Assembly (NCBI GenBank): GCA_028716565.1
Contig: JAQUPL010000001.1
Location: forward strand, 19,545-83,544
DNA from: Candidatus Omnitrophota bacterium
Lineage (GTDB): Bacteria > Omnitrophota > Gorgyraeia > Pluralincolimonadales > Pluralincolimonadaceae
Direction: 5' to 3'
DNA: 64,000 nt
The notes beneath the pieces are model-generated. The model ran no database searches, was not told the DNA's origin, and saw nothing but the letters and a program-made list of their open reading frames with translations. The translations under genes and the position numbers were made by a program. Shown in pieces: positions 3-31,845 of this stretch; position 1 is the stretch's first letter, and every line of letters begins with the position of its first letter.

Positions 3-105
3 AAGCCTTCGGAGAAGAAAGAGGTATATGACAACCAGCTCCAGACCGCAGTGGACGCGATAAAGACGATGAGGATATACAAGTCCTCCGTTGTTAAAAA
101 ATGAG
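3..105 (+). CDS. 3' end of an upstream CDS running off the window start (C-terminus ...IKTMRIYKSSVVKK); product unknown
   Basis: Frame 3 is open from the window edge to TGA at 103-105. It overlaps the next ATG by 4 nt (ATGA), typical of operon coupling. No recognisable motif. Confidence 0.3.
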
Positions 106-1282: not shown

Positions 1283-1287
1283 GGATA

Positions 1288-2283
1288 ATGCTTGTCCTCG
1301 GCATCGAGACATCTTGCGATGAGACGGGTGCCGGCGTGGTAAAGGACGGCAACAGAGTGCTCTCCGACGCGGTAGCTTCTTCTCTCGAATTCCATAAGAG
1401 ATACGGCGGTGTAGTACCGGAGATAGCCACGCGCTACCATCTGGAAGTCATCGATTATGTGGTGAAGGATTCGCTCAGATCGGCCGGCAAAACGTTGAAA
1501 GATATCGATCTCGTCGCGGTGACACAGGGGCCGGGACTGGTCGGCGCGCTCCTTGTCGGGATATCGTTCGCAAAATCCCTCAGTTATTCCCTCGGTATAC
1601 CGGTCGTAGGCGTAAACCATCTCTGGGCGCATATCTACTCAGGGCTCATCGGCCGCACCAAGGTCAAATTCCCGATCATGGGCCTTGTCGTTTCCGGAGG
1701 CCATACCAGCCTCGTCCTTTGCGAAGATATAGGAAAATTCAGGTTGCTCGGCCAGACGAGGGACGACGCGGTGGGCGAGGCGTTCGACAAGGTCGCAAAG
1801 ATACTAGGGCTTGGTTATCCGGGCGGGCCGGCGATCGAAAAGGCGGCGCTCCGCGGCGACCCGGACGCAGTCAGGTTTACTTACCCATATATGGGCGATG
1901 ATTCATACGATTTTAGTTTCAGCGGGATGAAAACTGCGGTATTATATCATGTGAAGGGCCGGAAGCTTACCGCTGCAATGAAAGCGGATATCGCGGCGAG
2001 TTTCCAGAAGGCCGCTGTCGGAGCGATCGTCGAAAAAGCCGTATCGGCCTGCGCGGAAAAAAAGATAGGCTGCCTGGTCGTAGGCGGAGGTGTGAGCGCC
2101 AACAGGATATTAAGGGACAAACTTACCGGCGCCGGCGAAAGGAACGGGATAGAAGTCATATTCCCGCCGATGCGGCTTTCGCTCGATAATGGCGCGATGA
2201 TCGCCTCAACGGGTTACCTTTTATTCAAGAACGGGAAGAGGTCGGGACTATCCCTGACCGCTGAACCGGATCTCGGGATCTAG
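1288..2283 (+). CDS. tsaD: tRNA N6-adenosine threonylcarbamoyltransferase TsaD (Kae1/Gcp family)
   Basis: N-terminus MLVLGIETSCDETGAGVV, a HxxH-like metal site (VNHLWAHIY), GVSAN and FPPMRLSLDNGAMIA motifs. About 331 aa, typical of TsaD. Confidence 0.92.
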   Translation: MLVLGIETSCDETGAGVVKDGNRVLSDAVASSLEFHKRYGGVVPEIATRYHLEVIDYVVKDSLRSAGKTLKDIDLVAVTQGPGLVGALLVGISFAKSLSYSLGIPVVGVNHLWAHIYSGLIGRTKVKFPIMGLVVSGGHTSLVLCEDIGKFRLLGQTRDDAVGEAFDKVAKILGLGYPGGPAIEKAALRGDPDAVRFTYPYMGDDSYDFSFSGMKTAVLYHVKGRKLTAAMKADIAASFQKAAVGAIVEKAVSACAEKKIGCLVVGGGVSANRILRDKLTGAGERNGIEVIFPPMRLSLDNGAMIASTGYLLFKNGKRSGLSLTAEPDLGI

Positions 2284-2299
2284 CTAGAAGGAGAGAGCG

Positions 2300-2983
2300 A
2301 TGGGACTTAGCGAATATGATATGATAATCAGGCTGTGCCTGGCCGCGATATTAAGCGGGTTTATAGGATACGAGCGCGAGGTCCACGGGAGGCTGGCCGG
2401 CCTGAGGACACATATCCTCGTAGGTATCGGCTCGACCCTCATAATGCTTACTTCGATGCATATATTTGATATATACAGGGGAGTGGCGACCCCCGACCCT
2501 GCCCGCATCGCGGCGCAGGTCGTTAGCGGTATAGGTTTTCTCGGAGCCGGCACGATAATAAGGTTTAAGGCCTCGGTCCGCGGCCTTACGACCGCGGCAA
2601 GCCTCTGGACCGTCGCGGGCCTCGGCCTCGCGGTCGGCGCGGGCTTATTTATAGCGGCTACCGTTACGACGATCCTGGCGTTAGTGGCCCTCTTCTTCCT
2701 TAACAGGCTGGAGAGGGTAATGATAAGGAGGGATTGGTATAAGTTCCTCGAGATAGACACAAAGGCCGGCGCCTCTCAGCTCCAGGAGATACGGTCGGTC
2801 CTTTCCGAGTATGACGCGGAGATAAAAGATTTCGACGTGAAAAGATCCTCGTCTTCCGAGGACCTCATCATAAAGATCAATGTCAAGCTTTTGACCAACG
2901 AATTCGATAGCGAGATATTGTCCAAGATTCGCGAACTGGACGGGGTCAAGAGAGCGGGTTGGTCGTCGTCGGTCGATTCATAA
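2300..2983 (+). CDS. mgtC: MgtC/SapB family membrane protein with C-terminal ACT-like domain
   Basis: The MgtC signature (LAAILSGFIGYEREVHGRLAGLRTHILVGIGSTLIM...GIGFLGAGTII) is followed by a soluble C-terminal domain. Confidence 0.8.
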   Translation: MGLSEYDMIIRLCLAAILSGFIGYEREVHGRLAGLRTHILVGIGSTLIMLTSMHIFDIYRGVATPDPARIAAQVVSGIGFLGAGTIIRFKASVRGLTTAASLWTVAGLGLAVGAGLFIAATVTTILALVALFFLNRLERVMIRRDWYKFLEIDTKAGASQLQEIRSVLSEYDAEIKDFDVKRSSSSEDLIIKINVKLLTNEFDSEILSKIRELDGVKRAGWSSSVDS

Positions 2984-3005
2984 AAGCACGAGAGGGGGTG
3001 TCAAG

Positions 3006-3539
3006 ATGCTCGGCAAAGGAAGGAAAGCGGAAGAGAAGGTATTGGATGTCGATGCCAGCATGCAGGGAACGATGTCTTTCAAGGACCCGGTGAATTTGCA
3101 GATAAACGGGAGGTTTGAAGGCACGCTTGACACGAAGGGAACGCTTACCATCGGAGAGAAGGCATTCGTAAGCGCGAACATAGTCGGAGACGAGATAACC
3201 ATTGCGGGCAGGGTGACCGGCGAAGTGGTCGCGAAAAAATCCCTTAAGCTCATCTCCCCGGCGCGCGTCGACGGGAACATAAAGACGCCGCTCCTGGAGA
3301 TAAGCAAGGGAGCCGTCCTGAACGGCAATTGCCAGATGGTCTCCGGAGGAAGGGCCTCGTCGCAGGCTGCGGCCGAATTGATGGAAGTGGAGGAGGTCGC
3401 CAGGTACCTCGAGGTCGATTCGTCGGTGGTCAGGGATTGGGCGGTCAGCGGAAAATTGCCCGCGATAAGGGAAGGTGACAGGCTGCATTTTGATAAAACC
3501 AAGATAGATGAGTGGATCGCATCGGAACGAATTAAATAA
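3006..3539 (+). CDS. bactofilin-domain protein fused to a C-terminal excisionase/MerR-type helix-turn-helix (HTH_17-like) domain
   Basis: Bactofilin beta-helix repeats (INGRFEGTLDTKGTLTIGEKAFVSANIVGDEITIAGRVTGEVVAKKSLKLISPARVDGNIKTPLLEISKGAVLNGN). The C-terminus (EVEEVARYLEVDSSVVRDWAVSGKLPAIREGDRLHFDKTKIDEWI) matches excisionase-family HTH DNA-binding domains. Confidence 0.65.
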   Translation: MLGKGRKAEEKVLDVDASMQGTMSFKDPVNLQINGRFEGTLDTKGTLTIGEKAFVSANIVGDEITIAGRVTGEVVAKKSLKLISPARVDGNIKTPLLEISKGAVLNGNCQMVSGGRASSQAAAELMEVEEVARYLEVDSSVVRDWAVSGKLPAIREGDRLHFDKTKIDEWIASERIK

Positions 3540-3903
3540 GGCATTCAACGCTCCGGCCGAACAGGAGAAGCTTATAAGCCTCCATGACGCCGCGGATATC
3601 CTTGAGTTGAGCGAGGAGGAACTGCGGCGTTTCGTCGCCGAAGGGAAGATCCCCGCTTACAGGATCGGCGGCGAATACCTGAGGTTCAGGAAGAGCCAAG
3701 TCGAGGCCTTGCGCAGCAGGATACGCATACTGAAGCACCAGTCGGTCCCGATACTCGACATCAGGCCGGCGCAGAGGGAAGAGAAGAAGGCCGGGTACTC
3801 GATATTCGACAGGATAAGGGATTTCGTATATTTTAACGATTTCTATATCCTCGCGTTCATTTTGATCGTCCTTTTAGTGGCGTTCATTCTCCTGAGAAGA
3901 TAG
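3508..3903 (+). CDS. excisionase-type HTH (HTH_17-like) protein with C-terminal transmembrane anchor
   Basis: LISLHDAADILELSEEELRRFVAEGKIPAYRIGGEYLRFRKSQVEAL is an HTH_17-like motif. The C-terminus (FYILAFILIVLLVAFILL) is a predicted TM helix. The ATG at 3508 overlaps the preceding gene by 32 nt, so the true start is uncertain. Confidence 0.5.
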   Translation: MSGSHRNELNKAFNAPAEQEKLISLHDAADILELSEEELRRFVAEGKIPAYRIGGEYLRFRKSQVEALRSRIRILKHQSVPILDIRPAQREEKKAGYSIFDRIRDFVYFNDFYILAFILIVLLVAFILLRR

Positions 3904-3908
3904 GCATC

Positions 3909-4658
3909 ATGGATTATTCCAGGCGTTCAATAAAAAAAGTACTCTCTCATCTTAAAGACGGCAGGATCTCCCGGGGGGCGGCTTTCAAGAAGTTCGAGCA
4001 TTTTCCTTTTCACGACATGGGTTTTGCCAAGATAGATTTCCACCGCGCCATCCGCAAAGGTTTCCCCGAAGTCATATTCGCGCCCGGCAAGAAAGACCGC
4101 GATATCGCCGAGATAGCGAAACGTATCATCGCCAGCGGGAATACGCTCCTTATCACCAAGGCCTCACCGGAATTATACGGGTATCTTCGTATCTCCATAC
4201 CCGTCCTGAAGTTCAACGAGGACGCGAGGATGATATATTACGCGAGGAAGCGGCCGCGGCTCAAAAAGAGCGAGGTGCTTATCGTGACCGCCGGCACATC
4301 GGATATTCCCGTCGCCGAGGAGGCGGTGTTGACGCTTGAACTCCTCGGGAACCGCGTTGGGAAGCTTTACGATGTCGGGGTCGCGGGCATACACAGGGTG
4401 GTCGGCAATATCCCGCTCCTGAAGAAGGCTAAGGTCATAATAGTCGTAGCCGGGATGGAGGGGGCGCTGGCCTCGATAGTCGGCGGGCTTGTCGCCTGCC
4501 CGGTCATAGCCGTGCCGACGTCGGTGGGATACGGCGCTTCGTTCGGCGGGCTGTCGTCGCTATTAACGATGCTGAACTCGTGCGCGCCCGGTGTGTGCGT
4601 GATGAATATCGATAACGGTTTCGGCGCCGGATATTTCGCGGGGCTTATAAATAAATGA
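3909..4658 (+). CDS. larB: nickel-pincer cofactor biosynthesis protein LarB (PurE-like nicotinic acid adenine dinucleotide carboxylase/hydrolase)
   Basis: PurE-like C-terminal domain (VLIVTAGTSDIPVAEEA...VVAGMEGALASIVGGLVACPVIAVPTSVGYG) with an N-terminal extension of about 100 aa, as in LarB. It is immediately upstream of larC, overlapping by 4 nt. Confidence 0.8.
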   Translation: MDYSRRSIKKVLSHLKDGRISRGAAFKKFEHFPFHDMGFAKIDFHRAIRKGFPEVIFAPGKKDRDIAEIAKRIIASGNTLLITKASPELYGYLRISIPVLKFNEDARMIYYARKRPRLKKSEVLIVTAGTSDIPVAEEAVLTLELLGNRVGKLYDVGVAGIHRVVGNIPLLKKAKVIIVVAGMEGALASIVGGLVACPVIAVPTSVGYGASFGGLSSLLTMLNSCAPGVCVMNIDNGFGAGYFAGLINK

Positions 4659-5839
4659 CCCATCACAAAAAAATATTATACCTTGATTGCCCGAGCGGGA
4701 TAAGCGGCGATATGTTCCTGGGGTCGCTCATAGATTGCGGCCTCGATATCAGGCGCCTCGCCTCGCAGCTGCGCAAGATTAAGATAGGCGTATATAAATT
4801 GGCGGCGCGCAAAGTCTCTCGCGCCGGCGTATCAGGCGTCAAATTCGACGTCATATATAAAAAGCACCGTGGGCACGAGCATACTGATGACAAGACATTC
4901 AAGGGCATCGCGAAGGCGATAAATTCATCAGGCCTCTCAAGCCGGGTCAAAGAAACATCCGTCGCGGTATTTACCAATCTCGCGAAAGCGGAGAGCAGGG
5001 CCCACGGGATCCCGGTTGGGAAGGTGCATTTCCACGAGGTCGGAGATATAGATTCCGTCGTGGATATAGTCGGCGCCTGCGTCGCTCTGGAGGAGATGGG
5101 AATAGATGAGGTTTATTCTTCGCGCCTCACTGTCGCCAATCCCGCTCCGGCGACCGCTTACCTGTTGCAGGGGATAGATATCTCCGTCGCCGTCTCGCCT
5201 TTTGAATTGGCCACACCCACAGGCGCCGCGCTCCTTAAGACATTTTCAAGATCACAGATCGATATACCGGCAATGAAGGTCCTCCGGGCCGGGTTCGGCG
5301 CCGGAAGCCGCGAGATCCCGGGCCGGCCGAACCTGCTCAAGGCGATAATAGGCGAGAGAAGGACAAACGGCGATGCGGATATCGTCACGGTATTGGAGAC
5401 CAACATCGATGATATGAACACCCAGGTCTACGGGTATCTTATCGACAGGCTCTTTGAGGCGGGGGCGCTGGATGTTTATATCACGCCTGCGATAATGAAA
5501 AAATCGCGGCCCGCCTGCGTATTGACGGTCCTCTCCGGGCCCTCGACGGCCGGGGTTCTCTCGGGGATCATCTTCGAAGAGACGTCCACATTCGGCATCA
5601 GGCGGCATAACGCCGAACGGCTGAAACTTGAACGTAAAATAGTTGAAGTAAAGACAAAATATGGTAATATAAAGGTGAAGGCGGGCTTCTACAAGGACTC
5701 GCTTAATATCTGTTCTCCGGAATACGAAGATTGCAAAAGGATCGCGGGGCTCAAAAAGGTTCCTTTTTCGGCCGTTAGGCGCGAGGCCGAGGCCGCAGCG
5801 CGCAGGAACATAAAAGGGGAGAAGCGGGGATTTGCTTAA
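4655..5839 (+). CDS. larC: nickel insertion protein LarC (DUF111; pyridinium-3,5-bisthiocarboxylate mononucleotide nickel chelatase)
   Basis: The N-terminus KILYLDCPSGISGDMFLGSLIDCGLD is the characteristic LarC/DUF111 start. Length is 394 aa. Confidence 0.85.
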   Translation: MTHHKKILYLDCPSGISGDMFLGSLIDCGLDIRRLASQLRKIKIGVYKLAARKVSRAGVSGVKFDVIYKKHRGHEHTDDKTFKGIAKAINSSGLSSRVKETSVAVFTNLAKAESRAHGIPVGKVHFHEVGDIDSVVDIVGACVALEEMGIDEVYSSRLTVANPAPATAYLLQGIDISVAVSPFELATPTGAALLKTFSRSQIDIPAMKVLRAGFGAGSREIPGRPNLLKAIIGERRTNGDADIVTVLETNIDDMNTQVYGYLIDRLFEAGALDVYITPAIMKKSRPACVLTVLSGPSTAGVLSGIIFEETSTFGIRRHNAERLKLERKIVEVKTKYGNIKVKAGFYKDSLNICSPEYEDCKRIAGLKKVPFSAVRREAEAAARRNIKGEKRGFA

Positions 5840-7541
5840 TAAGAGCAGGCTCATAGCCGAATACGTCAGGTCCATAGGGATCCTGGAAGAATCCCAGGTC
5901 AAGAACGTCCTTAAGTCACAGGTCGAATCAGGCGGCCGTCTCTCCGACATCCTCACCGGAATAGGTTTTTTAAAGATAGAGCAGCTCAGGGACCTCATCG
6001 TGCAGGAATTCTCCCTCGCCCGTTCCCCGATCTTCGACATGGAGATACCATTCGATGTGCTCCAGAAGGTAAAACCGAACATCGCCTACCGGCACAGGAT
6101 GGTGCCTATTAAATACGCGGACGACGTGCTTACGGTCGCCACCGATGATCCCATAAATCTCCTCGCGCAGGATAATCTCGAAGACTTAACCGGGTGTAAA
6201 TTAAATTTTGTCCTGACCTCGGAGACCAATCTTTCGATCGCGCTAGAAAAACATTACGGGGGCAGCAAGAACATCCTCGATGCGGTCGCGCAGAAAAAGG
6301 ATTCGGAGATAGCGGTATCTTTCAAGGGAGCGGCCGGAGAGGTCGCCAAGGAAGAGGAGAAAGAGGAAGCCCCGATAATAAAACTGGTCACGCAGATAAT
6401 CGCCGAGGCCGTAAAGAACCGTGCCTCGGATATCCATGTCGAGCCGCTCGAAGATAAATTCCGCATACGGTACAGGATAGACGGCGTCTTGCACGAAGTG
6501 CCGGGCCCGCCCAAGCAGCTGCAGCCGTCTATCATAAGCCGCCTGAAGATCATGGCCGGTATGAATATAGCGGAGAAGAGGTTGCCCCAGGACGGCAGGA
6601 TAAGGATCCATGGCGCGGGAAAGGACCTCGACCTGCGTGTTTCCACGCTCCCTGCTCTTTATGGTGAAAGCGTGGTCATGAGGATCCTCGATAAATCGAG
6701 CTTCATGCTGGGCCTTAAGGAATTGGGATTTCTCCATGGGGACGCGGACACGTTTGAAAGGCTGATACATCTCCCTTACGGGATGTTGCTTATAACCGGT
6801 CCCACCGGCAGCGGCAAAACGACGACGTTATACGCCTCGCTTAGCTATATCAATAAGCCGAACAAAAAATTAATAACGATCGAGGACCCGGTCGAATACC
6901 AGATCTCAGGGATAAACCAGGTCCACGTCAAGCCTTCGATCGGCCTGACTTTCGCTTCCGGCCTCAGGACGATGCTGAGGCAGGCGCCCGACGTCATAAT
7001 GGTCGGCGAGATACGCGATTTCGAGACGGCGTCTATCGCGATACAGGCGGCCCTGACCGGGCATCTCCTCTTCAGCACGCTCCATACCAACGACGCTGCC
7101 GGCGCTTTTACGCGCCTGATAGATATGGGCGTAAAATCGTATCTGGTGAGCTCTACGGTGCAGGCGGTCATGGCCCAGCGCCTCGTCAGGAAGATCTGCG
7201 ACAACTGCAGGGAAAACTATCAACCGAGCCTAGAGGAATTATATGTGCTTGGTTACAAACAGGACGATCCGAAAGCAAGCGAGATAAAATTATGGCGCGG
7301 GCACGGCTGCAAGAACTGCAATTATACGGGCTACCGGGGAAGGATAGGCATTTTCGAGCTTCTTATCAATACCGACGAAATAAGGGAGATGATCATAAAG
7401 AGGCTGCCTTCTCCCGAGATCAGGGACGCGGCCCGGAAGCACGGCATGAAACTCCTGCGCGAGGACGGCCTCTCGAAAGCGCTGGAGGGCATAACCACTA
7501 TATCTGAGGTCGTGCGCATAACGCACGGTTACGAGGAATAA
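5832..7541 (+). CDS. gspE: type II secretion / type IV pilus assembly ATPase (GspE/PilB family), paralog 1
   Basis: T2SSE_N-like N-domain, Walker A GPTGSGKTTT, Asp box, Walker B DVIMVGEIRD, His box LTGHLLFSTLHTNDAAGA and a tetracysteine zinc motif (CDNC...CKNC). Apparent TTG start overlaps the larC end by 8 nt. Confidence 0.9.
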   Translation: MLNKSRLIAEYVRSIGILEESQVKNVLKSQVESGGRLSDILTGIGFLKIEQLRDLIVQEFSLARSPIFDMEIPFDVLQKVKPNIAYRHRMVPIKYADDVLTVATDDPINLLAQDNLEDLTGCKLNFVLTSETNLSIALEKHYGGSKNILDAVAQKKDSEIAVSFKGAAGEVAKEEEKEEAPIIKLVTQIIAEAVKNRASDIHVEPLEDKFRIRYRIDGVLHEVPGPPKQLQPSIISRLKIMAGMNIAEKRLPQDGRIRIHGAGKDLDLRVSTLPALYGESVVMRILDKSSFMLGLKELGFLHGDADTFERLIHLPYGMLLITGPTGSGKTTTLYASLSYINKPNKKLITIEDPVEYQISGINQVHVKPSIGLTFASGLRTMLRQAPDVIMVGEIRDFETASIAIQAALTGHLLFSTLHTNDAAGAFTRLIDMGVKSYLVSSTVQAVMAQRLVRKICDNCRENYQPSLEELYVLGYKQDDPKASEIKLWRGHGCKNCNYTGYRGRIGIFELLINTDEIREMIIKRLPSPEIRDAARKHGMKLLREDGLSKALEGITTISEVVRITHGYEE

Positions 7542-7542
7542 A

Positions 7543-9279
7543 ATGGCTTCGGAAAAAGATCAACAGTCTAAACAGGAAAAATTCAAGAAGATAGGCCAGA
7601 TGCTTCTCGAGAAAGGCCTTATAAATGACCATCAATTGGAACAGGCCCTCGAGGAACAGAAACTGACGGGAAAACTCCTGGGCCGGATCTTGATCGATAT
7701 GGGGCTGGTCAAAGAGGAGGATATCCTCCAGGTCCTCGGCGCGCGCTCAGGCTTCTCGGTAGCAAGGCTTAAGGGTACGAAGATCCCGAAGGAGGTCATC
7801 GACAAGGTCCCGGCCTCGGTCGCCAAGATATATACTATCATTCCCGTCGCCATCGACGGTAACCAGCTCACCGTCGCTATCGCCGATCCGCTGAATGTGG
7901 CTGCCTTCGACGACCTGCGGTTTACCCTCGGGATGAACATCAAGGGCGTCGTAGCCAGTGATGAGGAGATAAAAGAGGAGATACAGAAATATTACGGCGC
8001 CGAGGGCGAGACGATACAGGATGTCCTGGGCGTATTCGGCGAAAAGATGGAACTCCTCCCGGTCGGAGAAGAAGCGACGGATATTTCCACGCTGCAGGAG
8101 CTCGCTTCCCGCGCCCCGGTCATAAAATTATTGAACATGATATTACTGCAGGGAGTCAAAGAGAAGGCCTCGGACATACATTTTGAGCCGTTCGAATCGG
8201 ATTACAGGATAAGATACAGGGTAGACGGCGTCCTTTATGAGGTGGCGCGGCCCCCGAAGAACTTGAGCCTCGGACTTTCGTCGAGGATAAAGGTCATGGC
8301 GAACCTCGATATAGCCGAACGAAGGCTTCCCCAGGACGGGCGCATCATGGTCACGATAGAAGGAAAGAGCGTCGACCTCAGGATCTCGACATTGCCGACG
8401 ATTTTCGGAGAGAGCGTCGTCATGAGGGTGCTCGACAGGACTACTGTCAGCCTTTCGATCGACGATGTGGGGATGCTCGAGGATACAAAGAAGAAGATAC
8501 GCGCCCTGATCATCAAGCCCAACGGGATACTCCTAGCTACCGGGCCGACAGGCTGCGGCAAAACGACCACTTTGTACGGCTGTATGAAGGAGATAAACAA
8601 GATAGAATATAAGGTCATCACGACCGAGGATCCCGTCGAGTACGACCTTAAAGGCGTAATACAGGTGCCGATAAACGCCAAGATCGGCCTCACCTTCGCG
8701 GCATCGCTGCGCCACATCTTAAGGCAGGACCCCGATATAATCATGGTCGGCGAGATCCGCGACGCCGAAACCGCCCAGATAGCCATCCAGGCCTCGCTCA
8801 CCGGACATCTCGTCTTCTCGACCATACACACCAATGACGCGGCAGGGACCATAACCAGGCTTATAGATATGGGCGTCGAGCCGTTCCTGGTGACCTCGAC
8901 GCTCGAGGCTGTACTTGCCCAACGCCTAGTCAGGAAGATATGCCAGTTCTGCAAAGAGGAATATACGCCCGAGCCGGAGATGCTATCCGACCTGGGGATA
9001 AAGCCTGAAGTCGCGAAGGGGAAGAAGTTCTACAGGGGAGCCGGCTGCGTAAAATGCAATAATTCCGGATATAAAGGAAGGACCGGCATATTTGAGCTCC
9101 TTATCCTTAACGACAAGCTCAGGGCACTGATAATAGAGAAGGCCCATACCGCATTGATAAAAGAGGCCGCCATAGAGGCCGGCATGAAGACCCTTCTTAA
9201 CGACGGCCTTGAAAAGGTATTCCTCGGCGCCACTACGCTCGAGGAGGTCCTTAAAGAAGCCCAGACTGCGATCCTTTGA
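7543..9279 (+). CDS. gspE: type II secretion / type IV pilus assembly ATPase (GspE/PilB family), paralog 2, with MshE-N-like N-terminus
   Basis: Walker A GPTGCGKTTT, Walker B DIIMVGEIRD, His box LTGHLVFSTIHTNDAAGT and a zinc motif CQFC...CVKC. The N-terminus (KIGQMLLEKGLINDHQLEQALEEQ then LGRILIDMGLVKEEDILQVL) fits the tandem MshEN c-di-GMP-binding pattern. Confidence 0.9.
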   Translation: MASEKDQQSKQEKFKKIGQMLLEKGLINDHQLEQALEEQKLTGKLLGRILIDMGLVKEEDILQVLGARSGFSVARLKGTKIPKEVIDKVPASVAKIYTIIPVAIDGNQLTVAIADPLNVAAFDDLRFTLGMNIKGVVASDEEIKEEIQKYYGAEGETIQDVLGVFGEKMELLPVGEEATDISTLQELASRAPVIKLLNMILLQGVKEKASDIHFEPFESDYRIRYRVDGVLYEVARPPKNLSLGLSSRIKVMANLDIAERRLPQDGRIMVTIEGKSVDLRISTLPTIFGESVVMRVLDRTTVSLSIDDVGMLEDTKKKIRALIIKPNGILLATGPTGCGKTTTLYGCMKEINKIEYKVITTEDPVEYDLKGVIQVPINAKIGLTFAASLRHILRQDPDIIMVGEIRDAETAQIAIQASLTGHLVFSTIHTNDAAGTITRLIDMGVEPFLVTSTLEAVLAQRLVRKICQFCKEEYTPEPEMLSDLGIKPEVAKGKKFYRGAGCVKCNNSGYKGRTGIFELLILNDKLRALIIEKAHTALIKEAAIEAGMKTLLNDGLEKVFLGATTLEEVLKEAQTAIL

Positions 9280-9334
9280 CTTTCGGTAACTTATAGGGTA
9301 TATTTATATTATAGACGAGAGAGGAACTACAACT

Positions 9335-10603
9335 ATGGCAATATTCAATTACGTGGCTATCGACAAGGACGGGAAAGAGATAAAAGGCAGGCTAGAGGTC
9401 AACTCTAACGATGAGGTGGTGACCCAGCTCCGCCAAAAGGGGCTTTATCCGGTAAGCGTAAGCGAGGAGAAGTCGAAAACGCCCGCCGCCGGCGCGGTTA
9501 AAGACCTGCGTGAAAGCCCTGCCCCGGCTAATAAAGTATCTATACTGAATCTCTCGTTGGGAGGGGTCAGCCAGAAGCAGGTGACCGTTTTTACGAGGCA
9601 GCTGGCCACGCTTATCGGGTCAGGCCTTCCTCTCGTGCGCGCGCTTTACGTCCTTGAGCGCCAGGAGAAAGGGGCCCTGAAAACGACCATCCGCGGCCTG
9701 GCCGAACAGGTAGAGGGCGGCAGTTCTTTTTCCGAAGCGCTCTCGAAATATCCGAAGGCTTTCCCTCCGCTTTATGTAAATACGGTCAAGGCCGGCGAGA
9801 CCGGCGGCGTCCTTGAAGTCGTCCTGACGCGCCTGGCTGAATTCGCCGAGAAGTCACAGAAGCTGAACAGCAGGATAAAGGCCGCCCTTATATATCCCGC
9901 CCTTGTCCTGACGTTGGCGCTTTCGGTCTTATTTTTCCTGATAACTTTCATAGTCCCGAAATTCATGCAGATATTCAAAGAGATGAACGTCGAACTGCCG
10001 ACCCCGACAAAGGTGCTCCTCTTCGTCAGCAGTTTGATGAAAGACAGATGGTTTGTCGGGCTCGGGATCATTATTTTTGTCATCGTGACCTATACGATAT
10101 TGTCCAAGGTAGCGGCGACGAGGCTGGTGATCGACAGGATAAAATTGGAGCTTCCGGTAATGGGGCCGTTGATCCGCAGGATAGCCATCGCGCGTTTCTC
10201 GAGGACTCTGGGCACTTTGCTTTCGAGCGGCGTCCCCATCCTCCAGTCGCTTATGGTCGCAAAAGATACGACCGGTAACGAGGTCATGGCGCGCTCGATA
10301 GTCCATGTCCACGACAGCGTACGCGAGGGAGAGACTGTGGCCAAGCCGCTTTTAAAGGCCGGCTTGTTCCCGGCGATGGCCGTCAACATGATATCTGTCG
10401 GCGAGGAGACCGGCGCTCTCGACCAGATGCTCCTCAAGATCGCGGACGTCTATGATGAAGAGGTGGATGTCACGGTAACGGGCCTTATGTCGTTATTGGA
10501 ACCTTTCCTTATTATCGGCATGGGCCTGATCGTCGGTTTTATAGTAGTTTCGATGTTTATGCCGCTCTTCAACCTCATAACCGCATTGGGAGGGAATGGT
10601 TAA
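9335..10603 (+). CDS. gspF: type II secretion / type IV pilus platform protein (GspF/PilC family)
   Basis: Two repeated GspF domains, three TM segments and the typical RxLxTLLxSGxPLxxAL motifs (RQLATLIGSGLPLVRAL and RTLGTLLSSGVPILQSL). Length is 422 aa. Confidence 0.9.
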   Translation: MAIFNYVAIDKDGKEIKGRLEVNSNDEVVTQLRQKGLYPVSVSEEKSKTPAAGAVKDLRESPAPANKVSILNLSLGGVSQKQVTVFTRQLATLIGSGLPLVRALYVLERQEKGALKTTIRGLAEQVEGGSSFSEALSKYPKAFPPLYVNTVKAGETGGVLEVVLTRLAEFAEKSQKLNSRIKAALIYPALVLTLALSVLFFLITFIVPKFMQIFKEMNVELPTPTKVLLFVSSLMKDRWFVGLGIIIFVIVTYTILSKVAATRLVIDRIKLELPVMGPLIRRIAIARFSRTLGTLLSSGVPILQSLMVAKDTTGNEVMARSIVHVHDSVREGETVAKPLLKAGLFPAMAVNMISVGEETGALDQMLLKIADVYDEEVDVTVTGLMSLLEPFLIIGMGLIVGFIVVSMFMPLFNLITALGGNG

Positions 10604-11072
10604 AATGGAAAAACGTAAAGGCGGGTTTACGATAATAGAGTTGATAGTCGTCATGACGATCATCCTTATATTGGCTGGCCTTATAACCGGCGCCGCGCAG
10701 AAGGCGAAGCAGCAGGCTATGGTGGCCAAGGCTAGGTCGATGATCGCCGGCCTGGAGACGTCGCTTGGGATGTTCCAGGCGGATACGGGGATATATCCCG
10801 CCACCGGCAATTTGTACTCGAACCTTACCAGTTCCGCCGGCCTTACGACCGCCCAGGCTGCGAATTGGGCCGGGCCTTACATGAATTTCCAGACGAATGA
10901 AGTAAATACCGTCGCCGGCACTATACTCGACCCCTGGAACAACGCCTATCATTACGCTAATACCGGCGCGGCCGCGCACGGTTTCGATCATTACATTGAT
11001 ATCTGGTCCAACGGCCCTAACAAAGTGGACAATAGCGGCGCGGGCGACGATGTAACCAACTGGAGAAGATAG
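10596..11072 (+). CDS. gspG: major pseudopilin, GspG-type (prepilin N-terminal cleavage/methylation motif)
   Basis: KGGFTIIELIVVMTIILILAGLI (G|FTxxE prepilin motif) followed by GspG-type globular domain motifs (DTGIYP, DPWNNAYHY, NGPNK...GDDVTNW). Confidence 0.85.
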   Translation: MVKMEKRKGGFTIIELIVVMTIILILAGLITGAAQKAKQQAMVAKARSMIAGLETSLGMFQADTGIYPATGNLYSNLTSSAGLTTAQAANWAGPYMNFQTNEVNTVAGTILDPWNNAYHYANTGAAAHGFDHYIDIWSNGPNKVDNSGAGDDVTNWRR

Positions 11073-11084
11073 CTCCTTAACATC

Positions 11085-11438
11085 ATGAGAAAAGGTTTTA
11101 CGTTAATCGAGATAGTCATATCGCTCGCGATACTCGCTGTAGGGTTGGTGGGCATATTGTCGCTTTTTCCGATAGGTTTTGACTCGGCTAGGCGCTCGAT
11201 GAATTCCACGCAGGTCGCGATCTTTGCCAATGAGAAGCTCGAAGAACTGAGGAACACCGGATTTCCCTCTTTAGGCGTCACGAGCGGGGCCTTCTCCGAC
11301 GCGTCTTATGCGTGGTCGCAGAGCGTTTCAACCGTAGACGCGATCGACGCATTAAGGAAGGTGGATCTGACGGTAACCTGGGAATACAGGAGCCGCCCTT
11401 ACCAGCAGGTATTCACGACCTATGTGGCGACCAGATAG
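11085..11438 (+). CDS. minor pseudopilin, GspI-like (prepilin-type N-terminal methylation motif)
   Basis: MRKGFTLIEIVISLAILAVGLVGILSLFP. Length is 117 aa, typical of GspI. Confidence 0.65.
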   Translation: MRKGFTLIEIVISLAILAVGLVGILSLFPIGFDSARRSMNSTQVAIFANEKLEELRNTGFPSLGVTSGAFSDASYAWSQSVSTVDAIDALRKVDLTVTWEYRSRPYQQVFTTYVATR

Positions 11439-12198
11439 ATATATAAGAAGGAATAGCTCCGGCCTGACCTTGGTCGAGATCCTCGTCGTGGCCGTCATCT
11501 TCTCCATACTAGTTACCTCCCTGTTTACGGTCTTCAGGGGCGGGCTCGATTCCTGGCACAAGGCCGAGACGATCCTAGATATGTACCAGAACGCTAGGTT
11601 CGCGCTCGACATAATGGAGAGGGAGATAGCCTCCGCCTGCCTCTACCAGGAAAGCTCCAACACCGCATACTGGACTAAATTCGAGGGTTATCGTTATCCC
11701 TCCGTGTCCGGCCTAAAGACCGGCTCCGCAGGCGACGAGATCTTTTTCGTCGCGCCGATAGCGAATAATTCGGCCAAGCAGGACCTATGCGAAGCCGGAT
11801 ATTGGCTCAGGAACGATAACCGCCTCATGCACCATTTCGAGTATTTCGACGGAAGCGTAGTGCCGGTTGCCTATGATTTTTCAAAGAAGGCCGACGGTTC
11901 CGCGGATACCGGGGCATCCGATACCACAGTCGCCCGCAATGTCACGGCTTTGCAGTTTACTTATTATTACAGGCATGCGGCCGCCGCCGCGCCGGATTTC
12001 GATACTCCGGCATTGCATACATGGAATTCCGGATCGGATAATCCGGGAGGAAGGGCCGAGAACTACGATTCGGACGGAAACGCTAAGAATCCCGACGGCT
12101 TGCCTGACGCGGTGGAAATATCCATAACGCTGCAGAGCAAGGACGGCAGCCAGACAAAGACCTTTACGGATTTCATAAGGATCGTAGGTGCGAGATGA
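11422..12198 (+). CDS. minor pseudopilin, GspJ-like (prepilin-type N-terminal methylation motif)
   Basis: SGLTLVEILVVAVIFSILVTSLFTVF prepilin motif with a larger globular domain. The start overlaps the previous gene. Confidence 0.6.
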   Translation: MWRPDRYIRRNSSGLTLVEILVVAVIFSILVTSLFTVFRGGLDSWHKAETILDMYQNARFALDIMEREIASACLYQESSNTAYWTKFEGYRYPSVSGLKTGSAGDEIFFVAPIANNSAKQDLCEAGYWLRNDNRLMHHFEYFDGSVVPVAYDFSKKADGSADTGASDTTVARNVTALQFTYYYRHAAAAAPDFDTPALHTWNSGSDNPGGRAENYDSDGNAKNPDGLPDAVEISITLQSKDGSQTKTFTDFIRIVGAR

Positions 12199-15173
12199 AA
12201 GAGACTAGCCCCAAATACAAAAAGAAGAGAGGCGTAGCCCTCATAATCTCGGTGGGCATCCTGGCGCTCATCGCGATGATAGCCACGAGTTTCGCTATAA
12301 ACATGCAGATCGAGTATAGGGCCGCGGCGAATTTTATGTATTATACCGTAGCTAAAGAGCTATCCGGCGCGGGCCTTGATAAGACGATTGCCGATATCCG
12401 GGCTTTGGCGGCAAACAACAGTTACGACGACGTCATGACTACCATAAATGCATCTCCTTACGCCGACCCGGGGACCGAGGTGAATTTAGCGGAGGGAAGC
12501 TATCAGGTCTATGTGGAGCGGGAGGACCAGAAGATAAACATAAACGCCCTTGATGAGACCGATTATCCGTGGATAGATGAGTTGAAAAGCAAGGGCCTTT
12601 CATACGATGACATCGCGAAGATAATCAATTATCGCGTTCCGGAGACGGAGTATAGCAGTATCACCTCTGTATTGACCGCCACCGGCCCTCAGTCCTGTAA
12701 CAGCGGCACCATCCAGAAGCACGGGCCTTACGCAACAGTCGAAGAATTGCGGCTTGTCCTTAACGACGACGTCAAATATAATGCCATAAAAGACTTCGTT
12801 ACCGTCTATGCCCCGGTGATACCGGGAGGGCTTACCGGTAAGTATTACTCCCAACCCGATAATACGGTGTGGGATAAAAACTCGATCCTGGGCCTTGGTA
12901 ATTTTTGCGGCAAAGTCGTGGAATTTCGCGCCCTTAAAGAGGCGAAGGACTCCGGTTCAGACCCCTGGCCTCCTTCCGGGACGTTCCCGGGCGCCGACGG
13001 GGATTGGAACGGATGGAGCGAGGCGCACGACGCGGAATTTGCGGGGGGTTATATAGCCGCTGACTGGACGTGGCGGTCGGGATTGGATTATTTCGGCGCG
13101 GTATTCACCGGCTATATATACATACCTCAGGATAAGGTAAATCAGGATATAACCTTCAAGATGCGCAGCGAGAACGGCTGCAGGCTTTTTATAGACGGGA
13201 CAAAATTGATCGAAGATTGGACCGACAGGAACATGGGCGGCTGGCCGTCAGATAATGTCCTTGTCGCTCCGGTTGTTGTCTTCAGCCGCGCCGGCTGGCA
13301 CTCGATAAGGGTCGAATACTACAACAAAGAGAACCAAAATACGGTCCAGCTTAAATGGGACGCCTACGGTTCTGATGATTACGTTCCGGCCGAATACTTC
13401 GGATATAATCCCTCTTCTTTTTACGGGGATATCGCGGTCGACTCGAACCCGGTGACGACGCCTAAGACATACAGGGCTGCCTCCAGGCTCGGGACGGATT
13501 ATAACTCGGCCGGTATCCTGAAGATAGTCTCTACAGGGAAGACGAAAAAGAACGGAGTCGTCGTAGCCGAAAAGAAGACGGCCTCGGTCATCCAGGTCTT
13601 TAATACCCTTACGCAATCGACGCGGGCGGAATTTTGGGCGCCGTGGTTCTCGCTCTACAACAATTTCAGCGATGGGGAGGTAAGGAACGTGACCTGGCTC
13701 GATTCGTGTCCGACCAGCCAGGATGGTTTCGACGGCAGCAAGATGAATTGGGAGGGGAATTACACGACCACCCCCGATTCCGTCAAGCTCGGATACTGGG
13801 ATAACTTCAACGACGATATTGCCTACACCGCGATAATATTGAAGGGGGGATATGTAACGAAGTTATTCGGTATAGCGTGGTGGGATTGGGATGTTCACAC
13901 ATTTCCCAGCACCCATGAACACTGGCTTCCTAGGGGAAGAATAGACGGTGAAGATGCAACTGCTATAAATTGGGACGGCGATTATGTGTGGCCCTGCACT
14001 TTCGGCGATTTTTCCGTCCCGGAAGGGTTCAAGGAAGATGGCATTAATGGCACGTATTGCCTCAGAATGGATGTACCGGGATATTATTACGATGGATGCA
14101 GGGCTGAGGAAAGGCAAGCTGAATTAAACAGTTATTACTACAAAGCAGACTCGCCGTTGGGCTACGATATCTTCGCCAGGTCTTATGTCTATGACAACGG
14201 ACAGAAGCAGACATGGGACAGCAACTGGCAACGGCCTCCAAGCCAGCGCTTGGCTAATCCGGGATATGCCTCCCATATTCCGTCATTTTTGACGGGGTAT
14301 CTCATCCTCAAGACCGATCCGCCGTATACAACTGACCATCAGACAAAACCCGGAGACGTTTATTATACTTTTGTCCAAAACGGGACCGACTGGTTCGGTT
14401 CCTCCGACTCGGATGCGAGCGTAATATATTGTCCAGGCAAGACAGACTCGACAGTCGGCGCCTGTTATTCCTGGAATGAGGATACGCAACAGACGCAGTA
14501 CTACATATTAGCGGCGATAGGGGTGGGAACCACGTATAAGGCTTATTATTCCTATACTACTCAGGATGGTTCCGGTTGGGTCACCACGGGAGCATCCGGA
14601 ACAGGCAGCGCGTCTAAAGCAGGTGTCGTAGCATTCCGGGCAAACAATATATATTATGTCGATCTCGACTTATTCTGGCAGGGGGACCCTCCCTACACCA
14701 ATGAAGTATTCGTCGATATGGTATACGACAGGACTGACGGGATCACCGACAATAACCCCAGATATATTGGCAGCACCAGCGAATGCGTGACCGACTTCGA
14801 TAACGTCAGGGTCATATATCCAAAGGGTTATATAGTATCCGCGCCGCTTATAGCTAAGCCTCCTTCGGATAACGCCAATATAATATGGGATACGATAACG
14901 TGGAATGATGCGAACCCGAATCCTGCCAATACCTCAATAACGATGTATGCCAGGGCGGCCGACACCCCTTCCGCAAGCGATGATTTCTCGACTGAATACT
15001 CCAAAGGGGACTCATTGTCATCCCTTTCAGGCGGTAAGTTCCAGTATAAGGCTTTATTGGGCACGACAGCGTTGAACCCTAATGACTATTCGGCCAGCAG
15101 CTCCACGCCTGTCCTGAAGGGCGTCACCGTGATGTACCACCGGCCGAAAGCCCGGGTATTTTACCAGCAGTAG
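12195..15173 (+). CDS. giant GspK-like pseudopilin (992 aa) with internal PA14 domain and long C-terminal extension
   Basis: GspK-type N-terminus (KKKRGVALIISVGILALIAMIATSFAINMQ) and a GspK-like helical region (QKININALDE...TVEELRLVLNDD). A PA14-like segment lies at about nt 12825-13370 (TGKYYSQP...FTGYIYIPQD...FKMRSENGCRLFIDG...HSIRVEYYNKEN...LKWDAYG), followed by about 600 aa of W/Y-rich sequence. Confidence 0.65.
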   Translation: MKETSPKYKKKRGVALIISVGILALIAMIATSFAINMQIEYRAAANFMYYTVAKELSGAGLDKTIADIRALAANNSYDDVMTTINASPYADPGTEVNLAEGSYQVYVEREDQKININALDETDYPWIDELKSKGLSYDDIAKIINYRVPETEYSSITSVLTATGPQSCNSGTIQKHGPYATVEELRLVLNDDVKYNAIKDFVTVYAPVIPGGLTGKYYSQPDNTVWDKNSILGLGNFCGKVVEFRALKEAKDSGSDPWPPSGTFPGADGDWNGWSEAHDAEFAGGYIAADWTWRSGLDYFGAVFTGYIYIPQDKVNQDITFKMRSENGCRLFIDGTKLIEDWTDRNMGGWPSDNVLVAPVVVFSRAGWHSIRVEYYNKENQNTVQLKWDAYGSDDYVPAEYFGYNPSSFYGDIAVDSNPVTTPKTYRAASRLGTDYNSAGILKIVSTGKTKKNGVVVAEKKTASVIQVFNTLTQSTRAEFWAPWFSLYNNFSDGEVRNVTWLDSCPTSQDGFDGSKMNWEGNYTTTPDSVKLGYWDNFNDDIAYTAIILKGGYVTKLFGIAWWDWDVHTFPSTHEHWLPRGRIDGEDATAINWDGDYVWPCTFGDFSVPEGFKEDGINGTYCLRMDVPGYYYDGCRAEERQAELNSYYYKADSPLGYDIFARSYVYDNGQKQTWDSNWQRPPSQRLANPGYASHIPSFLTGYLILKTDPPYTTDHQTKPGDVYYTFVQNGTDWFGSSDSDASVIYCPGKTDSTVGACYSWNEDTQQTQYYILAAIGVGTTYKAYYSYTTQDGSGWVTTGASGTGSASKAGVVAFRANNIYYVDLDLFWQGDPPYTNEVFVDMVYDRTDGITDNNPRYIGSTSECVTDFDNVRVIYPKGYIVSAPLIAKPPSDNANIIWDTITWNDANPNPANTSITMYARAADTPSASDDFSTEYSKGDSLSSLSGGKFQYKALLGTTALNPNDYSASSSTPVLKGVTVMYHRPKARVFYQQ

Positions 15174-30749: not shown

Positions 30750-31351
30750 TGATGATCATAATCGGGGTAACGGGAAGCATAGGCACGGGTAAGACGACTG
30801 TCTCGGGGATGTTCAGGAGGATGGGGGCCGTGGTGATCGACGCTGACGAGATCTCCCACCGGCTTATTTATCCGGGAAGGCCCGCGTGGAAGAGGATTGT
30901 TTCCGCTTTTGGGGAAACAATCCTGAAGCGCGACCATTTTATCGACAGGAAGGCTTTGGGGCGTATTGTATTTTCCGACAGCCGGAAGCTTAAAAAGTTG
31001 AGCGGAATTATCCATCCTCTCGTCTATAAGGAGATACGCGGAAGGATCGCGAAGATAAAAAGGTCGGACCCGTCATCGATCGTCATAGTCGATGTGCCTC
31101 TTTTGCTGGAAAGCGGGGGCCGGAAGCATATAGACAAACTGATAGTGGTGACCGCGCCGCGCGGCGCCCAATTAAAAAGGTCGTGCGGGAAATTCGGGAT
31201 CAGCAGGTCCGACGTTATGCGGCGCATAAAGGCGCAGATGCCGCTAAGGGATAAGGTAAAGGCCGCCGATTTCGTGATCGATAACGGCGGGAGCATTATC
31301 TCTACGGCGAAACAGTCAAGGGCCATATGGAAGAAGCTGGTGGGAGCGTAA
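30746..31351 (+). CDS. coaE: dephospho-CoA kinase
   Basis: IIIGVTGSIGTGKTTVS P-loop and ...VIDADEISH. Confidence 0.88.
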   Translation: MMMIIIGVTGSIGTGKTTVSGMFRRMGAVVIDADEISHRLIYPGRPAWKRIVSAFGETILKRDHFIDRKALGRIVFSDSRKLKKLSGIIHPLVYKEIRGRIAKIKRSDPSSIVIVDVPLLLESGGRKHIDKLIVVTAPRGAQLKRSCGKFGISRSDVMRRIKAQMPLRDKVKAADFVIDNGGSIISTAKQSRAIWKKLVGA

Positions 31352-31845
31352 GCTGTCCTCATAGGATAGAGGATGTCCTCGATGTCCTTAACAATGAGAT
31401 ATCGGGATCGAAGAACAAGAGGATACTTCCGTCTATCGCGCTTCTTTTGGTCGATATAGATAATTTAGAGAGGGTCAACCGGTGGTACGGCAGGAACACC
31501 GGCAATGAGGTGCTGTCGGCTACGGCTAAGATCCTGCACCGTACGATCAGGGAGGACGACCTTCTCGCCAGGTTCGGCGGGGACGAATTCCTTCTGCTCT
31601 TTCGCGGGATCACCCTGAAGGAAGCGAAGGAGAAGGCGTCAAAGATAATAGAGTCTTTGAAGAACCACGATTTCGCCTCGGACAGGCTGAAGATCTCGGC
31701 TTCGATCGGGATAGCGCATTATTTCTCTTTCGCTTTCTCGGGTGATGAACTGCTGGGATGCGCCGTGGAGGCTTTAGCGTTGGCACAAAAAGAGGGAGGA
31801 ACATTCAAGGTGTTTATGGAAGAGGAGGAATGGAATGAAGACTAA
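31327..31845 (+). CDS. minimal stand-alone GGDEF-domain protein (putative diguanylate cyclase)
   Basis: [24 protein letters not shown] and an intact [11 protein letters not shown] active-site motif. It is only 172 aa with no sensory domain; the start is uncertain because it overlaps the coaE end. Confidence 0.6.

Follow-up and report, generated by a model that had tools for sequence, protein, structure and literature searches.

The 64,000 nt stretch of Candidatus Omnitrophota DNA analysed here (the window) encodes two paralogous extension ATPases, here named PilB1 and PilB2, that are conserved as a pair and probably (a probability of about 0.6) serve a single T4P/T2SS-like machine into which c-di-GMP would feed via PilB2 only. 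T4P extension is generally ascribed to a single PilB. Taken singly, each protein belongs unremarkably to a known family; the point of interest is their conserved pairing, which would provide a testable example, found in nature, of two motors with different inputs on one platform. The Omnitrophota, as yet uncultured, are regarded as host-dependent or predatory, and the PilB pair is likely to be the point at which regulation reaches their main surface filament. The only well-studied exception with two motors is PilB/TfpB of Acinetobacter, and the need for two extension motors is an open question (PMC11656802).

Two adjacent PilB/GspE-class ATPase genes

All features described here lie on the plus strand. 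The PilB1 gene (5832..7541; 569 aa) has a TTG start that overlaps the stop of the upstream larC by 8 nt, and a 1 nt gap separates its stop from the ATG start of the PilB2 gene (7543..9279; 578 aa). An earlier note on this DNA had described two tandem GspE/PilB-class ATPases of about 570 aa, and translation of the open reading frames and Pfam searches agreed with it exactly. T2SSE (PF00437) was found in both proteins, with E values of 8e-142 for PilB1 and 2e-140 for PilB2, as was MshEN (PF05157), at residues 67-146 and 73-156, respectively. As the PF05157 matches span only the C-terminal subdomain, they do not test the c-di-GMP motif and were not used as evidence for it. A protein 100% identical to PilB1 occurs in Candidatus Omnitrophota MAGs.

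Motif searches located the complete Walker A and B motifs, His boxes and tetracysteines that had been reported for both proteins. The catalytic core of PilB1 (6798..7319) comprises Walker A (GPTGSGKTT, 6798-6824), an Asp box (EDPVEY, 6882-6899), Walker B with the catalytic Glu (DVIMVGEIRD, 6990-7019), a His box (GHLLFSTLHTND, 7059-7094) and a CxxC...CxxC tetracysteine (7197-7319). That of PilB2 (8542..9057) comprises Walker A (GPTGCGKTT, 8542-8568), an Asp box (EDPVEY, 8626-8643), Walker B with the catalytic Glu (DIIMVGEIRD, 8734-8763), a His box (GHLVFSTIHTND, 8803-8838) and a CxxC...CxxC tetracysteine (8941-9057). The catalytic residues of each paralog are all invariant in 120/120 homologues, and both proteins would be catalytically competent motors of the hexameric type. 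PilB1 and PilB2 differ mostly in the N-terminal regulatory domain, with 24% identity there and 55% in the ATPase core.

Both are full-length PilB/GspE-class ATPases and neither is PilT-like. A PilT/PilU identity, already discounted in the earlier note, was rejected on TIGR01420 scores of 187 and 166 bits for PilB1 and PilB2 against a cutoff of 319, and the hallmarks that distinguish the extension class from PilT/PilU, an N-terminal GSPII (N1D) domain and the tetracysteine Zn motif, are present in both. Models of the two N-terminal domains match the structures of MshEN, PilF GSPII and XpsE-N. The best full-length PDB matches were the T4aP PilB proteins of Geobacter and Myxococcus (PDB 5TSG, 6OLJ, 3JC8; E about 1e-163), together, for PilB2, with Thermus PilF. 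With scores of 631.4 and 632.5, PilB1 and PilB2 both fall below the cutoff of the T4aP PilB equivalog TIGR02538 (675.65). On the T2SS GspE equivalog TIGR02533 (cutoff 630.25), PilB2 scored 648.4, in a match limited to residues 87-571, and PilB1 scored 625.1. A T4P-like context, rather than a classical T2SS one, is favoured by the presence of pilT in relatives and by a PilM-PilN fusion.

The N-terminal domains and c-di-GMP

The strict 2016 consensus for the c-di-GMP motif matches neither PilB1 nor PilB2, so we used NF053729, a curated 53 aa NCBIfam model of the motif (two 24-residue motifs and a 5-residue spacer; cutoff 38 bits), and the extended consensus from work on PilF GSPII-B. PilB2 passes NF053729 with 66.8 bits (E 1e-18, residues 16-66). 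Its tandem MshEN motif (K16-R68; 7588..7746), placed using this model and alignment to PilF GSPII-B and MshE, reads KIGQMLLEKGLINDHQLEQALEEQ-KLTGK-LLGRILIDMGLVKEEDILQVLGAR, where motif I starts with KIG, the 5 aa spacer is KLTGK and motif II starts with LLG, and Gly is at position 3 of each motif (G18 and G47). The earlier note had called this match almost perfect, which is a slight overstatement, as PilB2 departs from the strict consensus: K and I replace R and L in motif I, and L replaces R, I replaces L and R replaces the terminal Q in motif II. The published relaxed expression, [RKPN]hGxxhhxx[GAS]hhxxxxhxxxhxx[QNKRYWST] for both motifs, matches motif I, and motif II deviates from it at position 1 (Leu) only. 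As Leu is also found there in PilF GSPII-B, which has a K167/L196 first-residue pattern and binds c-di-GMP with a KD of 6 nM without the arginines (PMC11731258), the 2016 expression is outdated at this position.

The backbone amide of the position 3 Gly reads guanine O6/N7 (PMC5013675, PMC12002112), and the G11I substitution in Vibrio cholerae MshE abolishes c-di-GMP binding (PMC5013675). Among PilB2 orthologues, this Gly was found in 118/120 and 119/120, Leu was at position 1 of motif II in 105/120, and motif II ended in Gln in 80/120 and in Arg, as in PilB2, in 33/120. The AF2 model of the PilB2 N-terminal domain (pLDDT 81) superposes on c-di-GMP-bound MshE (5HTL_B) with a TM score of 0.85 and an rmsd of 2.1 Å, and in this model, which is not a structure, the four-helix bundle and alpha/beta subdomain are in a ligand-competent arrangement. 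PilB2 thus retains what looks like a working MshEN receptor of the Lys/Leu subtype, for which c-di-GMP binding is predicted from the motif and the model, and it would plausibly couple filament assembly to c-di-GMP.

One of the closest likenesses is to GSPII-B in Thermus thermophilus PilF (PDB 8PDK and 9G1W for the GSPII-B and GSPII-A domains), which has the same first residues, Lys in motif I and Leu in motif II, and shares the stretch TG[KD]LLGRIL[IV] with PilB2. PilB2 differs from it in having a full-length motif II whose last residue is Arg, not Gln. This Arg is the counterpart of R62 in the non-binding PilF GSPII-A, which counts against binding; R62Q is among the changes that GSPII-A required to regain it (PMC12002112). 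Putting back consensus residues alone left GSPII-A unable to bind (PMC12002112), so sequence motifs are imperfect predictors.

In PilB1, the corresponding 53 aa region (L7-E59; 5850..6008), placed using NF053729 and alignment to 5HTL, reads LIAEYVRSIGILEESQVKNVLKSQ-VESGG-RLSDILTGIGFLKIEQLRDLIVQE. It scored 22.3 bits on NF053729, below the cutoff of 38, and neither motif matched the strict, relaxed or core expressions. A degenerate motif with the Gly replaced had been noted previously, and the degeneracy goes further: neither glycine is kept (motif I has LIA, with A9, and motif II has RLS, with S38), and the terminal Gln is Glu. The model of the PilB1 domain (pLDDT 85), again not a structure, has the same fold elements but aligns to 5HTL with a TM score of only 0.55 and an rmsd of 7 Å, and is nearest to PilF GSPII-A. 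PilB1 resembles GSPII-A in combining the MshEN fold with a residue other than Gly at position 3; GSPII-A is non-binding, and Ala at this position costs it 10-30 fold in affinity (PMC12002112). In Thermus PilF, a single 889 aa ATPase fuses the domain that binds with the one that does not, whereas here they would be on two separate full-length ATPases.

The motif glycines are found in only 27/120 and 38/120 PilB1 homologues. Within the PilB1 clade, motif I varies at position 3 (G, E, A or K). Some close relatives (~85% identical) keep the motif I Gly, so in part of the clade its loss may be incomplete or recent. The profile check that the earlier note had proposed therefore came out differently for the two paralogs, and its view that both N-termini bind c-di-GMP is not upheld: only PilB2 passes the model, keeps the glycines and superposes on ligand-bound MshEN, and PilB1 fails on all three counts. 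Gating of assembly by c-di-GMP, also proposed there, is plausible for PilB2, where it is predicted, but not for PilB1, where the motif is degenerate, as it is in most of its orthologues across Omnitrophota. Having lost both guanine-reading glycines, PilB1 is predicted to be c-di-GMP-blind. However, G16, Q30 and G45 are invariant in the PilB1 clade's N-terminal domain and R36 is present in at least 90%, which hints at another ligand or a protein partner rather than simple decay.

Conservation of the pair and the surrounding cluster

A contig search with the PilB1-clade alignment matched generic Walker-type peptides, and the matches listed were near-random GspE/PilB loci from many phyla rather than orthologues from Omnitrophota; the context of Omnitrophota orthologues was obtained by locating contigs that encode the orthologous proteins (n=8 loci). 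The order pilB1-(pilT)-pilB2-pilC was found in 8/8 of these, always with pilC next after pilB2. In most relatives, pilT lies between pilB1 and pilB2. It is absent there in the window, and neither tblastn nor Pfam, the latter run on the majority of the larger ORFs of the plus strand, found a PilT in the window. Among the matches listed, loci from Planctomycetota and Verrucomicrobiota also show the pilB1-(pilT)-pilB2-pilC order, and the pairing apparently reaches beyond Omnitrophota to these phyla. For Planctomycetes, Verrucomicrobia and Omnitrophota alike, no account of a dual PilB was found in the literature searched, the coverage of which is incomplete, making this weak evidence of novelty.

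In neighbour-joining trees the ATPases fall into two paralog clades. With a tolerance of two taxa, these were recovered in 87 and 96/100 bootstraps; support for the exact clades in these distance-based trees was modest (47 and 51/100), and the PilB1 and PilB2 clades were sisters in 24/100. PilB1 evolves somewhat faster, with 57% identity compared with 62-65% for PilB2 at equal taxonomic distance. Judged from these comparisons, the two are ancient, phylum-spanning paralogs and not the product of a local duplication.

Downstream of PilB2 are genes for a GspF/PilC platform protein (9335..10603; two T2SSF domains), no other ORF with this domain having been found in the Pfam scan of cluster ORFs, a GspG-like major pseudopilin (10596-11072) and two N-methyl minor pilins (11085-11438 and 11422-12198), with Pfam matches to T2SSG and N_methyl among these three. 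Four further products are tied to the pilus machine by position only: a PA14 protein (12195-15173), a beta-helix protein (15184-16053), a PilX_N-like 868 aa protein with a weak Pfam match (16075-18681; E 0.003) and a large protein with no assigned family (18674-19780). Beyond these are the PilM-PilN fusion (19859-21508; PilM_2, PilN), two ORFs at the place of PilO/PilP (21512-22273 and 22270-22947), both unannotated and without a family match, a TPR/STN protein (22953-24080) and tandem secretin paralogs that are 44% identical (24077-25198 and 25195-26298; Secretin, Secretin_N). Promoter and terminator sites in 2900-11200 were no more numerous than in shuffled sequences, and they give no information on operon boundaries. 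The antiquity of the paralog pair, the absence here of the intervening pilT and the duplicated secretin are points that the earlier note had missed.

A short GGDEF protein (31327..31845; Pfam GGDEF E 3.6e-25) is encoded 22 kb downstream of the ATPase pair. Its GGDEF motif is intact (RFGGDEF) and is preceded by an RxxD I-site (REDD). Lying in this part of the genome, the protein is a candidate source of c-di-GMP, any link to the pilus being putative.

A probable single machine with two motors, and the alternatives

We favour a single machine because the ATPase genes are 1 nt apart and only one GspF, one set of pilins and PilMN come after them. Both motors would act on the PilC/GspF platform encoded directly downstream, a proposal for which gene order is the sole basis, and PilB1 would add another extension input, under different regulation or with a specialised task, such as initiation versus processive elongation. 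Acinetobacter baylyi offers a precedent, in that the same pilus is extended by PilB and also by TfpB (PMC8213720, PMC11656802). The duplicated secretins leave room for two sub-machines and count against a single machine.

An arrangement in which PilB1 and PilB2 power different filaments, such as a short pseudopilus for T2SS-type secretion and an extended pilus for adhesion, possibly with one secretin each, is unlikely. The cluster does mix T2SS-type features (the GspG-type major pilin, and PilB2 above the GspE cutoff) with T4P-type ones (PilM-PilN, and pilT in relatives), there are two secretins, and extension ATPases are usually system-specific (PMC11656802). However, the cluster in the window has a single gene for the platform and a single one for the alignment complex, and every sampled locus has one platform gene after PilB2. 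Further, in L083, the one relative for which the secretin region was recovered, the pair coexists with a single fused secretin, so the ATPase pair occurs independently of a duplicated secretin. Mixed hexamers, a possibility raised in the earlier note, in which c-di-GMP sensing in PilB2 would tune a composite motor, also seem improbable, although the genes are translationally coupled across the 1 nt gap and strictly paired in 8/8 Omnitrophota loci, the 55% identity of the cores suggests that interfaces may be compatible, and a review raises PilB-TfpB hetero-oligomers as a possibility and reports BACTH contacts between ATPase paralogs (PMC11656802). Against this, pilT separates the two genes in most relatives, so tight coupling is not ancestral, and no mixed PilB-type hexamer was found in the literature searched. 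Lost catalytic residues or arginine fingers often mark an obligate non-catalytic partner, but neither paralog has lost them, and, with every catalytic residue kept in 120/120 homologues of each, there is no sign that either is a degenerate partner subunit.

That PilB1 is a redundant duplicate with a drifting sensor and no role of its own is very improbable. The degenerate motif, its variable position 3 and the somewhat faster evolution of PilB1 would fit such a history, but the clade has been kept across Omnitrophota and apparently also in Planctomycetota and Verrucomicrobiota, and this retention, together with the invariant catalytic residues and the conserved G16, Q30, G45 and R36, points to strong purifying selection, not decay.

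The preferred reading, two motors on one machine, is best seen as a parallel to Acinetobacter PilB/TfpB without orthology. There too, two full-length, phylogenetically distinct PilB-type ATPases are tied to one filament and only one is differentially regulated, by CpiA, which inhibits PilB only (PMC8213720); here the predicted input is c-di-GMP. TfpB orthology was rejected on NF053534 scores of 471.2 (PilB1) and 457.1 bits (PilB2) against a cutoff of 850, and tfpB has been described among Gammaproteobacteria. The pair described here from its sequences is instead found in synteny with pilT and pilC, across Omnitrophota and PVC phyla. More tentatively, Omnitrophota, Planctomycetota and Verrucomicrobiota may share an ancestral type IV filament machine in which two dedicated extension motors with diverged N-terminal sensors, one reading c-di-GMP and the other another input, flank a retraction motor (pilB1-pilT-pilB2-pilC). 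If so, dual extension motors would have arisen a second time, independently and far more widely than in Acinetobacter, and could govern prey attachment in presumed predatory or epibiotic Omnitrophota.

The pilB-pilT-pilC operon logic of the Geobacter and Myxococcus T4aP systems is also seen here, but those systems have a single PilB; the M. xanthus PilB binds c-di-GMP via MshEN (PMC11656802). V. cholerae MshE (PDB 5HTL) has the same architecture as the window ATPases, an MshEN N1D, an N2D and a CTD with a tetracysteine, and the same 24+5+24 motif layout as PilB2, but N-domain identity is about 28% and the first-residue arginines are replaced here. The genetic context also differs, with a second ATPase, GspF, a GspG-type pilin, PilM-PilN, TPR and secretin genes as neighbours in place of mshI-Q and MshA-type pilins. 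The sole resemblance to the msh operon is a TPR protein ahead of a secretin.

Two tandem ATPases with different N-terminal domains

The two ORFs called in the earlier note lie on the forward strand where it placed them, with a 1-nt gap between pilB1 (5832–7541, TTG start, 569 aa) and pilB2 (7543–9279, 578 aa). Its assignment of both to the PilB/GspE class was borne out: Pfam T2SSE and PF05157 were found in each, as were complete Walker A, Asp box, Walker B with the catalytic Glu, His box and tetracysteine CxxC...CxxC motifs, and both score far under the PilT/PilU subfamily cutoff. Individually they are ordinary members of this family, in which MshEN-bearing PilBs are well known, and their closest solved relatives are Geobacter PilB, Myxococcus PilB, Thermus PilF and Vibrio GspE. 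The window derives from a Candidatus Omnitrophota MAG; a protein annotated Candidatus Omnitrophica matches PilB1 at 100%, and an identical PilB2 is encoded on contigs of GCA_028714115.1 and GCA_028711645.1. Overall, PilB1 and PilB2 are 46% identical, a figure that rises to 55% in the ATPase core (N2D and CTD) and drops to 24% in the N-terminal domain. When the best 120 homologues of each (mostly from Omnitrophota) were compared, the catalytic residues and four cysteines were invariant in 120/120 for both. From this we conclude that PilB1 is not a decaying copy: the enzyme is conserved and looks active, and its sensor domain has been remodelled.

The MshEN motif is RLGxx(L/V/I)(L/V/I)xxG(L/V/I)(L/V/I)xxxxLxxxLxxQ, present twice with a 5-residue spacer, and the relaxed search pattern is [RKPN]hGxxhhxx[GAS]hhxxxxhxxxhxx[QNKRYWST] (Wang et al., PMC5013675). 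The Pfam MshEN match spans only residues ~70–150, the C-terminal subdomain, and is uninformative on the ligand-binding four-helix bundle. With the curated 53-residue NCBIfam model of the c-di-GMP motif, NF053729 (cutoff 38), PilB2 scored 66.8 bits (E 1e-18) and PilB1 22.3 bits; thus, the motif proposed for both N-termini stands in PilB2 and falls in PilB1.

The PilB2 motif region, KIGQMLLEKGLINDHQLEQALEEQ / KLTGK / LLGRILIDMGLVKEEDILQVLGAR, retains both motif glycines, both turn glycines and every hydrophobic position, and departs from the consensus by K/I in place of R/L in motif I and by Leu instead of Arg, Ile instead of Leu and Arg instead of Gln in motif II. In Thermus PilF GSPII-B, a known c-di-GMP binder with this variant (PMC11731258), the first motif positions are likewise Lys and Leu (K167 and L196), and alignment of the two revealed a common TG[KD]LLGRIL[IV] stretch. 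A caveat for PilB2 is that the Arg at the end of motif II corresponds to R62 of the non-binding PilF GSPII-A, where R62Q is among the changes needed for restoring binding (PMC12002112). This Arg is permitted by the relaxed pattern, and among the best 120 PilB2 homologues 80/120 have Gln and 33/120 have Arg at the position. The top PDB match of an AF2 model of PilB2 residues 1–172 (pLDDT 81) was c-di-GMP-bound MshE (5HTL_B; TM 0.85, rmsd 2.1 Å), and the next were ligand-bound GSPII-B structures.

In PilB1, motif I reads LIA... and motif II RLS...E, and hence both guanine-reading glycines have been lost. Binding by MshE is abolished by G11I (PMC5013675), and in engineered PilF GSPII-A an Ala at the motif Gly position carries a 10–30 fold affinity cost (PMC12002112). 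The PilB1 model (pLDDT 85) has the same secondary-structure elements; its top match was the non-binding GSPII-A (9G1W), and it superposed poorly on ligand-bound MshEN (TM 0.55, rmsd 7 Å).

Sensor state and gene order in relatives

The same difference is seen in the two sets of 120 homologues. Gly occupies motif I position 3 in 118/120 for PilB2 and 27/120 for PilB1, and motif II position 3 in 119/120 and 38/120, respectively (Ser in 60 and Ala in 13 PilB1 homologues), while motif II position 1 is Leu in 105/120 PilB2 homologues and Arg in 102/120 PilB1 homologues. Across a subset of 35 PilB1 homologues, three residues never vary (G16, Q30 and G45) and a fourth, R36, is kept at ≥90%. Among the matches listed, several Planctomycetota PilB1-clade proteins retain both hG motifs and several Planctomycetota loci have intact MshEN motifs in both paralogs. 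In the Verrucomicrobiota loci L011, L020 and L038 the motifs are degenerate in both. As judged from these sequences, both paralogs probably had intact MshEN domains at the outset, and loss or retention of the sensor is lineage-specific and not tied to one paralog.

In all eight independent Omnitrophota loci with a PilB1 homologue (57–100% identity), a PilB2 homologue and then GspF come downstream, and at least 35 contig-length coincidences between the two homologue lists lend the pairing indirect support. Five loci (L083, L084, L086, L087 and L089) have a PilT-type retraction ATPase (354–358 aa) in between, and in the window, L085 and L088 the two are directly adjacent. By tblastn, no PilT is encoded within the whole 64-kb window. 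On at least two occasions in Omnitrophota, pilT was apparently lost or relocated from between the paralogs. Among the matches listed in a GTDB contig scan, the pilB-pilT-pilB' order was found in at least 11 Planctomycetota-labelled loci and in Verrucomicrobiota L020, two adjacent ATPases without pilT in L011 and L038, and one pilB followed by pilT in typical Deltaproteobacteria, Acidobacteriota and Nitrospirota loci.

In a neighbour-joining (NJ) tree, every first-position ATPase groups with PilB1 and every second-position ATPase with PilB2. Of 100 bootstraps, 87 and 96 contained these clades to within two taxa, 47 and 51 contained them exactly, and only 24 joined them as sisters. In another Omnitrophota genome (L073, 6900–11647), a PilT is accompanied by an isolated ORF that consists of MshEN alone and by a tandem of two full-length PilB-type ATPases. 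As these ATPases belong to neither clade, tandem ATPases arose more than once in Omnitrophota.

Proposed paired motors on a single platform

The best-supported model is that PilB1 and PilB2 would be two extension motors on one platform, with c-di-GMP entering through PilB2 only. What is observed is the identity of the genes, the state of their motifs, the similarity in fold and the conserved synteny; from these we infer c-di-GMP binding, a PilC shared by both motors and any split of tasks between them. A functional precedent is found in Acinetobacter baylyi, where efficient extension of one pilus requires TfpB, which is phylogenetically distinct, as well as PilB; the two have non-interchangeable roles, and the inhibitor CpiA acts on PilB only (PMC8213720; review PMC11656802). 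The window ATPases are not themselves TfpB orthologues (471 and 457 bits; cutoff 850).

The hetero-hexamer raised in the earlier note is possible, though nothing speaks for it specifically; the active sites are complete in both paralogs, and pilT usually separates the two genes. Two separate machines, one per ATPase, are a weakened alternative to two motors on one platform, as the cluster has a single platform gene and the one relative with its secretin region recovered (L083) has a single fused secretin.

No description of the pilB1-pilT-pilB2-pilC architecture, which spans all sampled Omnitrophota loci, with or without pilT, and Planctomycetota and Verrucomicrobiota loci, or of a systematic paralog difference in sensor integrity was found in the searchable literature. 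One Omnitrophota preprint reports T2SS-like loci with gspD/E/F beside giant genes, without paired-ATPase detail.

The surrounding genes

Downstream of pilB2 are the single GspF/PilC platform gene, a GspG-type major pilin with N-methyl minor pilins, and very large proteins within the pilin block (12195–18681), candidates for tip adhesins or for proteins that accompany the minor pilins: a 992-aa PA14-domain protein, also present in L083, a 289-aa beta-helix protein and an 868-aa protein with a weak PilX_N match. Beyond these lies a PilM-PilN fusion (19859–21508, 549 aa), found also in L083 (518 aa) and perhaps in L088, where a 543-aa PilM-domain protein may be another. A separate TPR/STN protein (22953–24080) then precedes two short tandem secretin paralogs (24077–25198 and 25195–26298; 373 and 367 aa, 44% identical). 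As L083 instead has a single 1033-aa TPR-STN-secretin fusion (2076–5177), we conclude that the outer-membrane channel was split and duplicated in the window lineage, and the secretin could be heteromeric. A stand-alone 172-aa GGDEF protein (31327–31845), without an obvious sensory domain, has an intact RFGGDEF and an RxxD I-site (REDD) five residues upstream, making c-di-GMP synthesis plausible in this organism.

Upstream (101–5839), the order is polysaccharide deacetylase-tsaD-mgtC-bactofilin/HTH-HTH-larB-larC-pilB1, preceded in L001/L002 by gatB-ctpB just outside the window. It is largely kept, with local gaps, in Omnitrophota relatives (L084–L088), even at 57–70% PilB1 identity, a stability that is unusual for unrelated functions; the bactofilin-HTH fusion (3006–3539) and the small HTH protein (3508–3903) may be regulators. 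Further downstream, 43560–51126 encodes formate-THF ligase, an FTCD_C cyclodeaminase-like protein, FolD, a two-part MTHFR and a MetH-like B12 methyltransferase, a folate/methyl-branch block consistent with anaerobic C1 metabolism.
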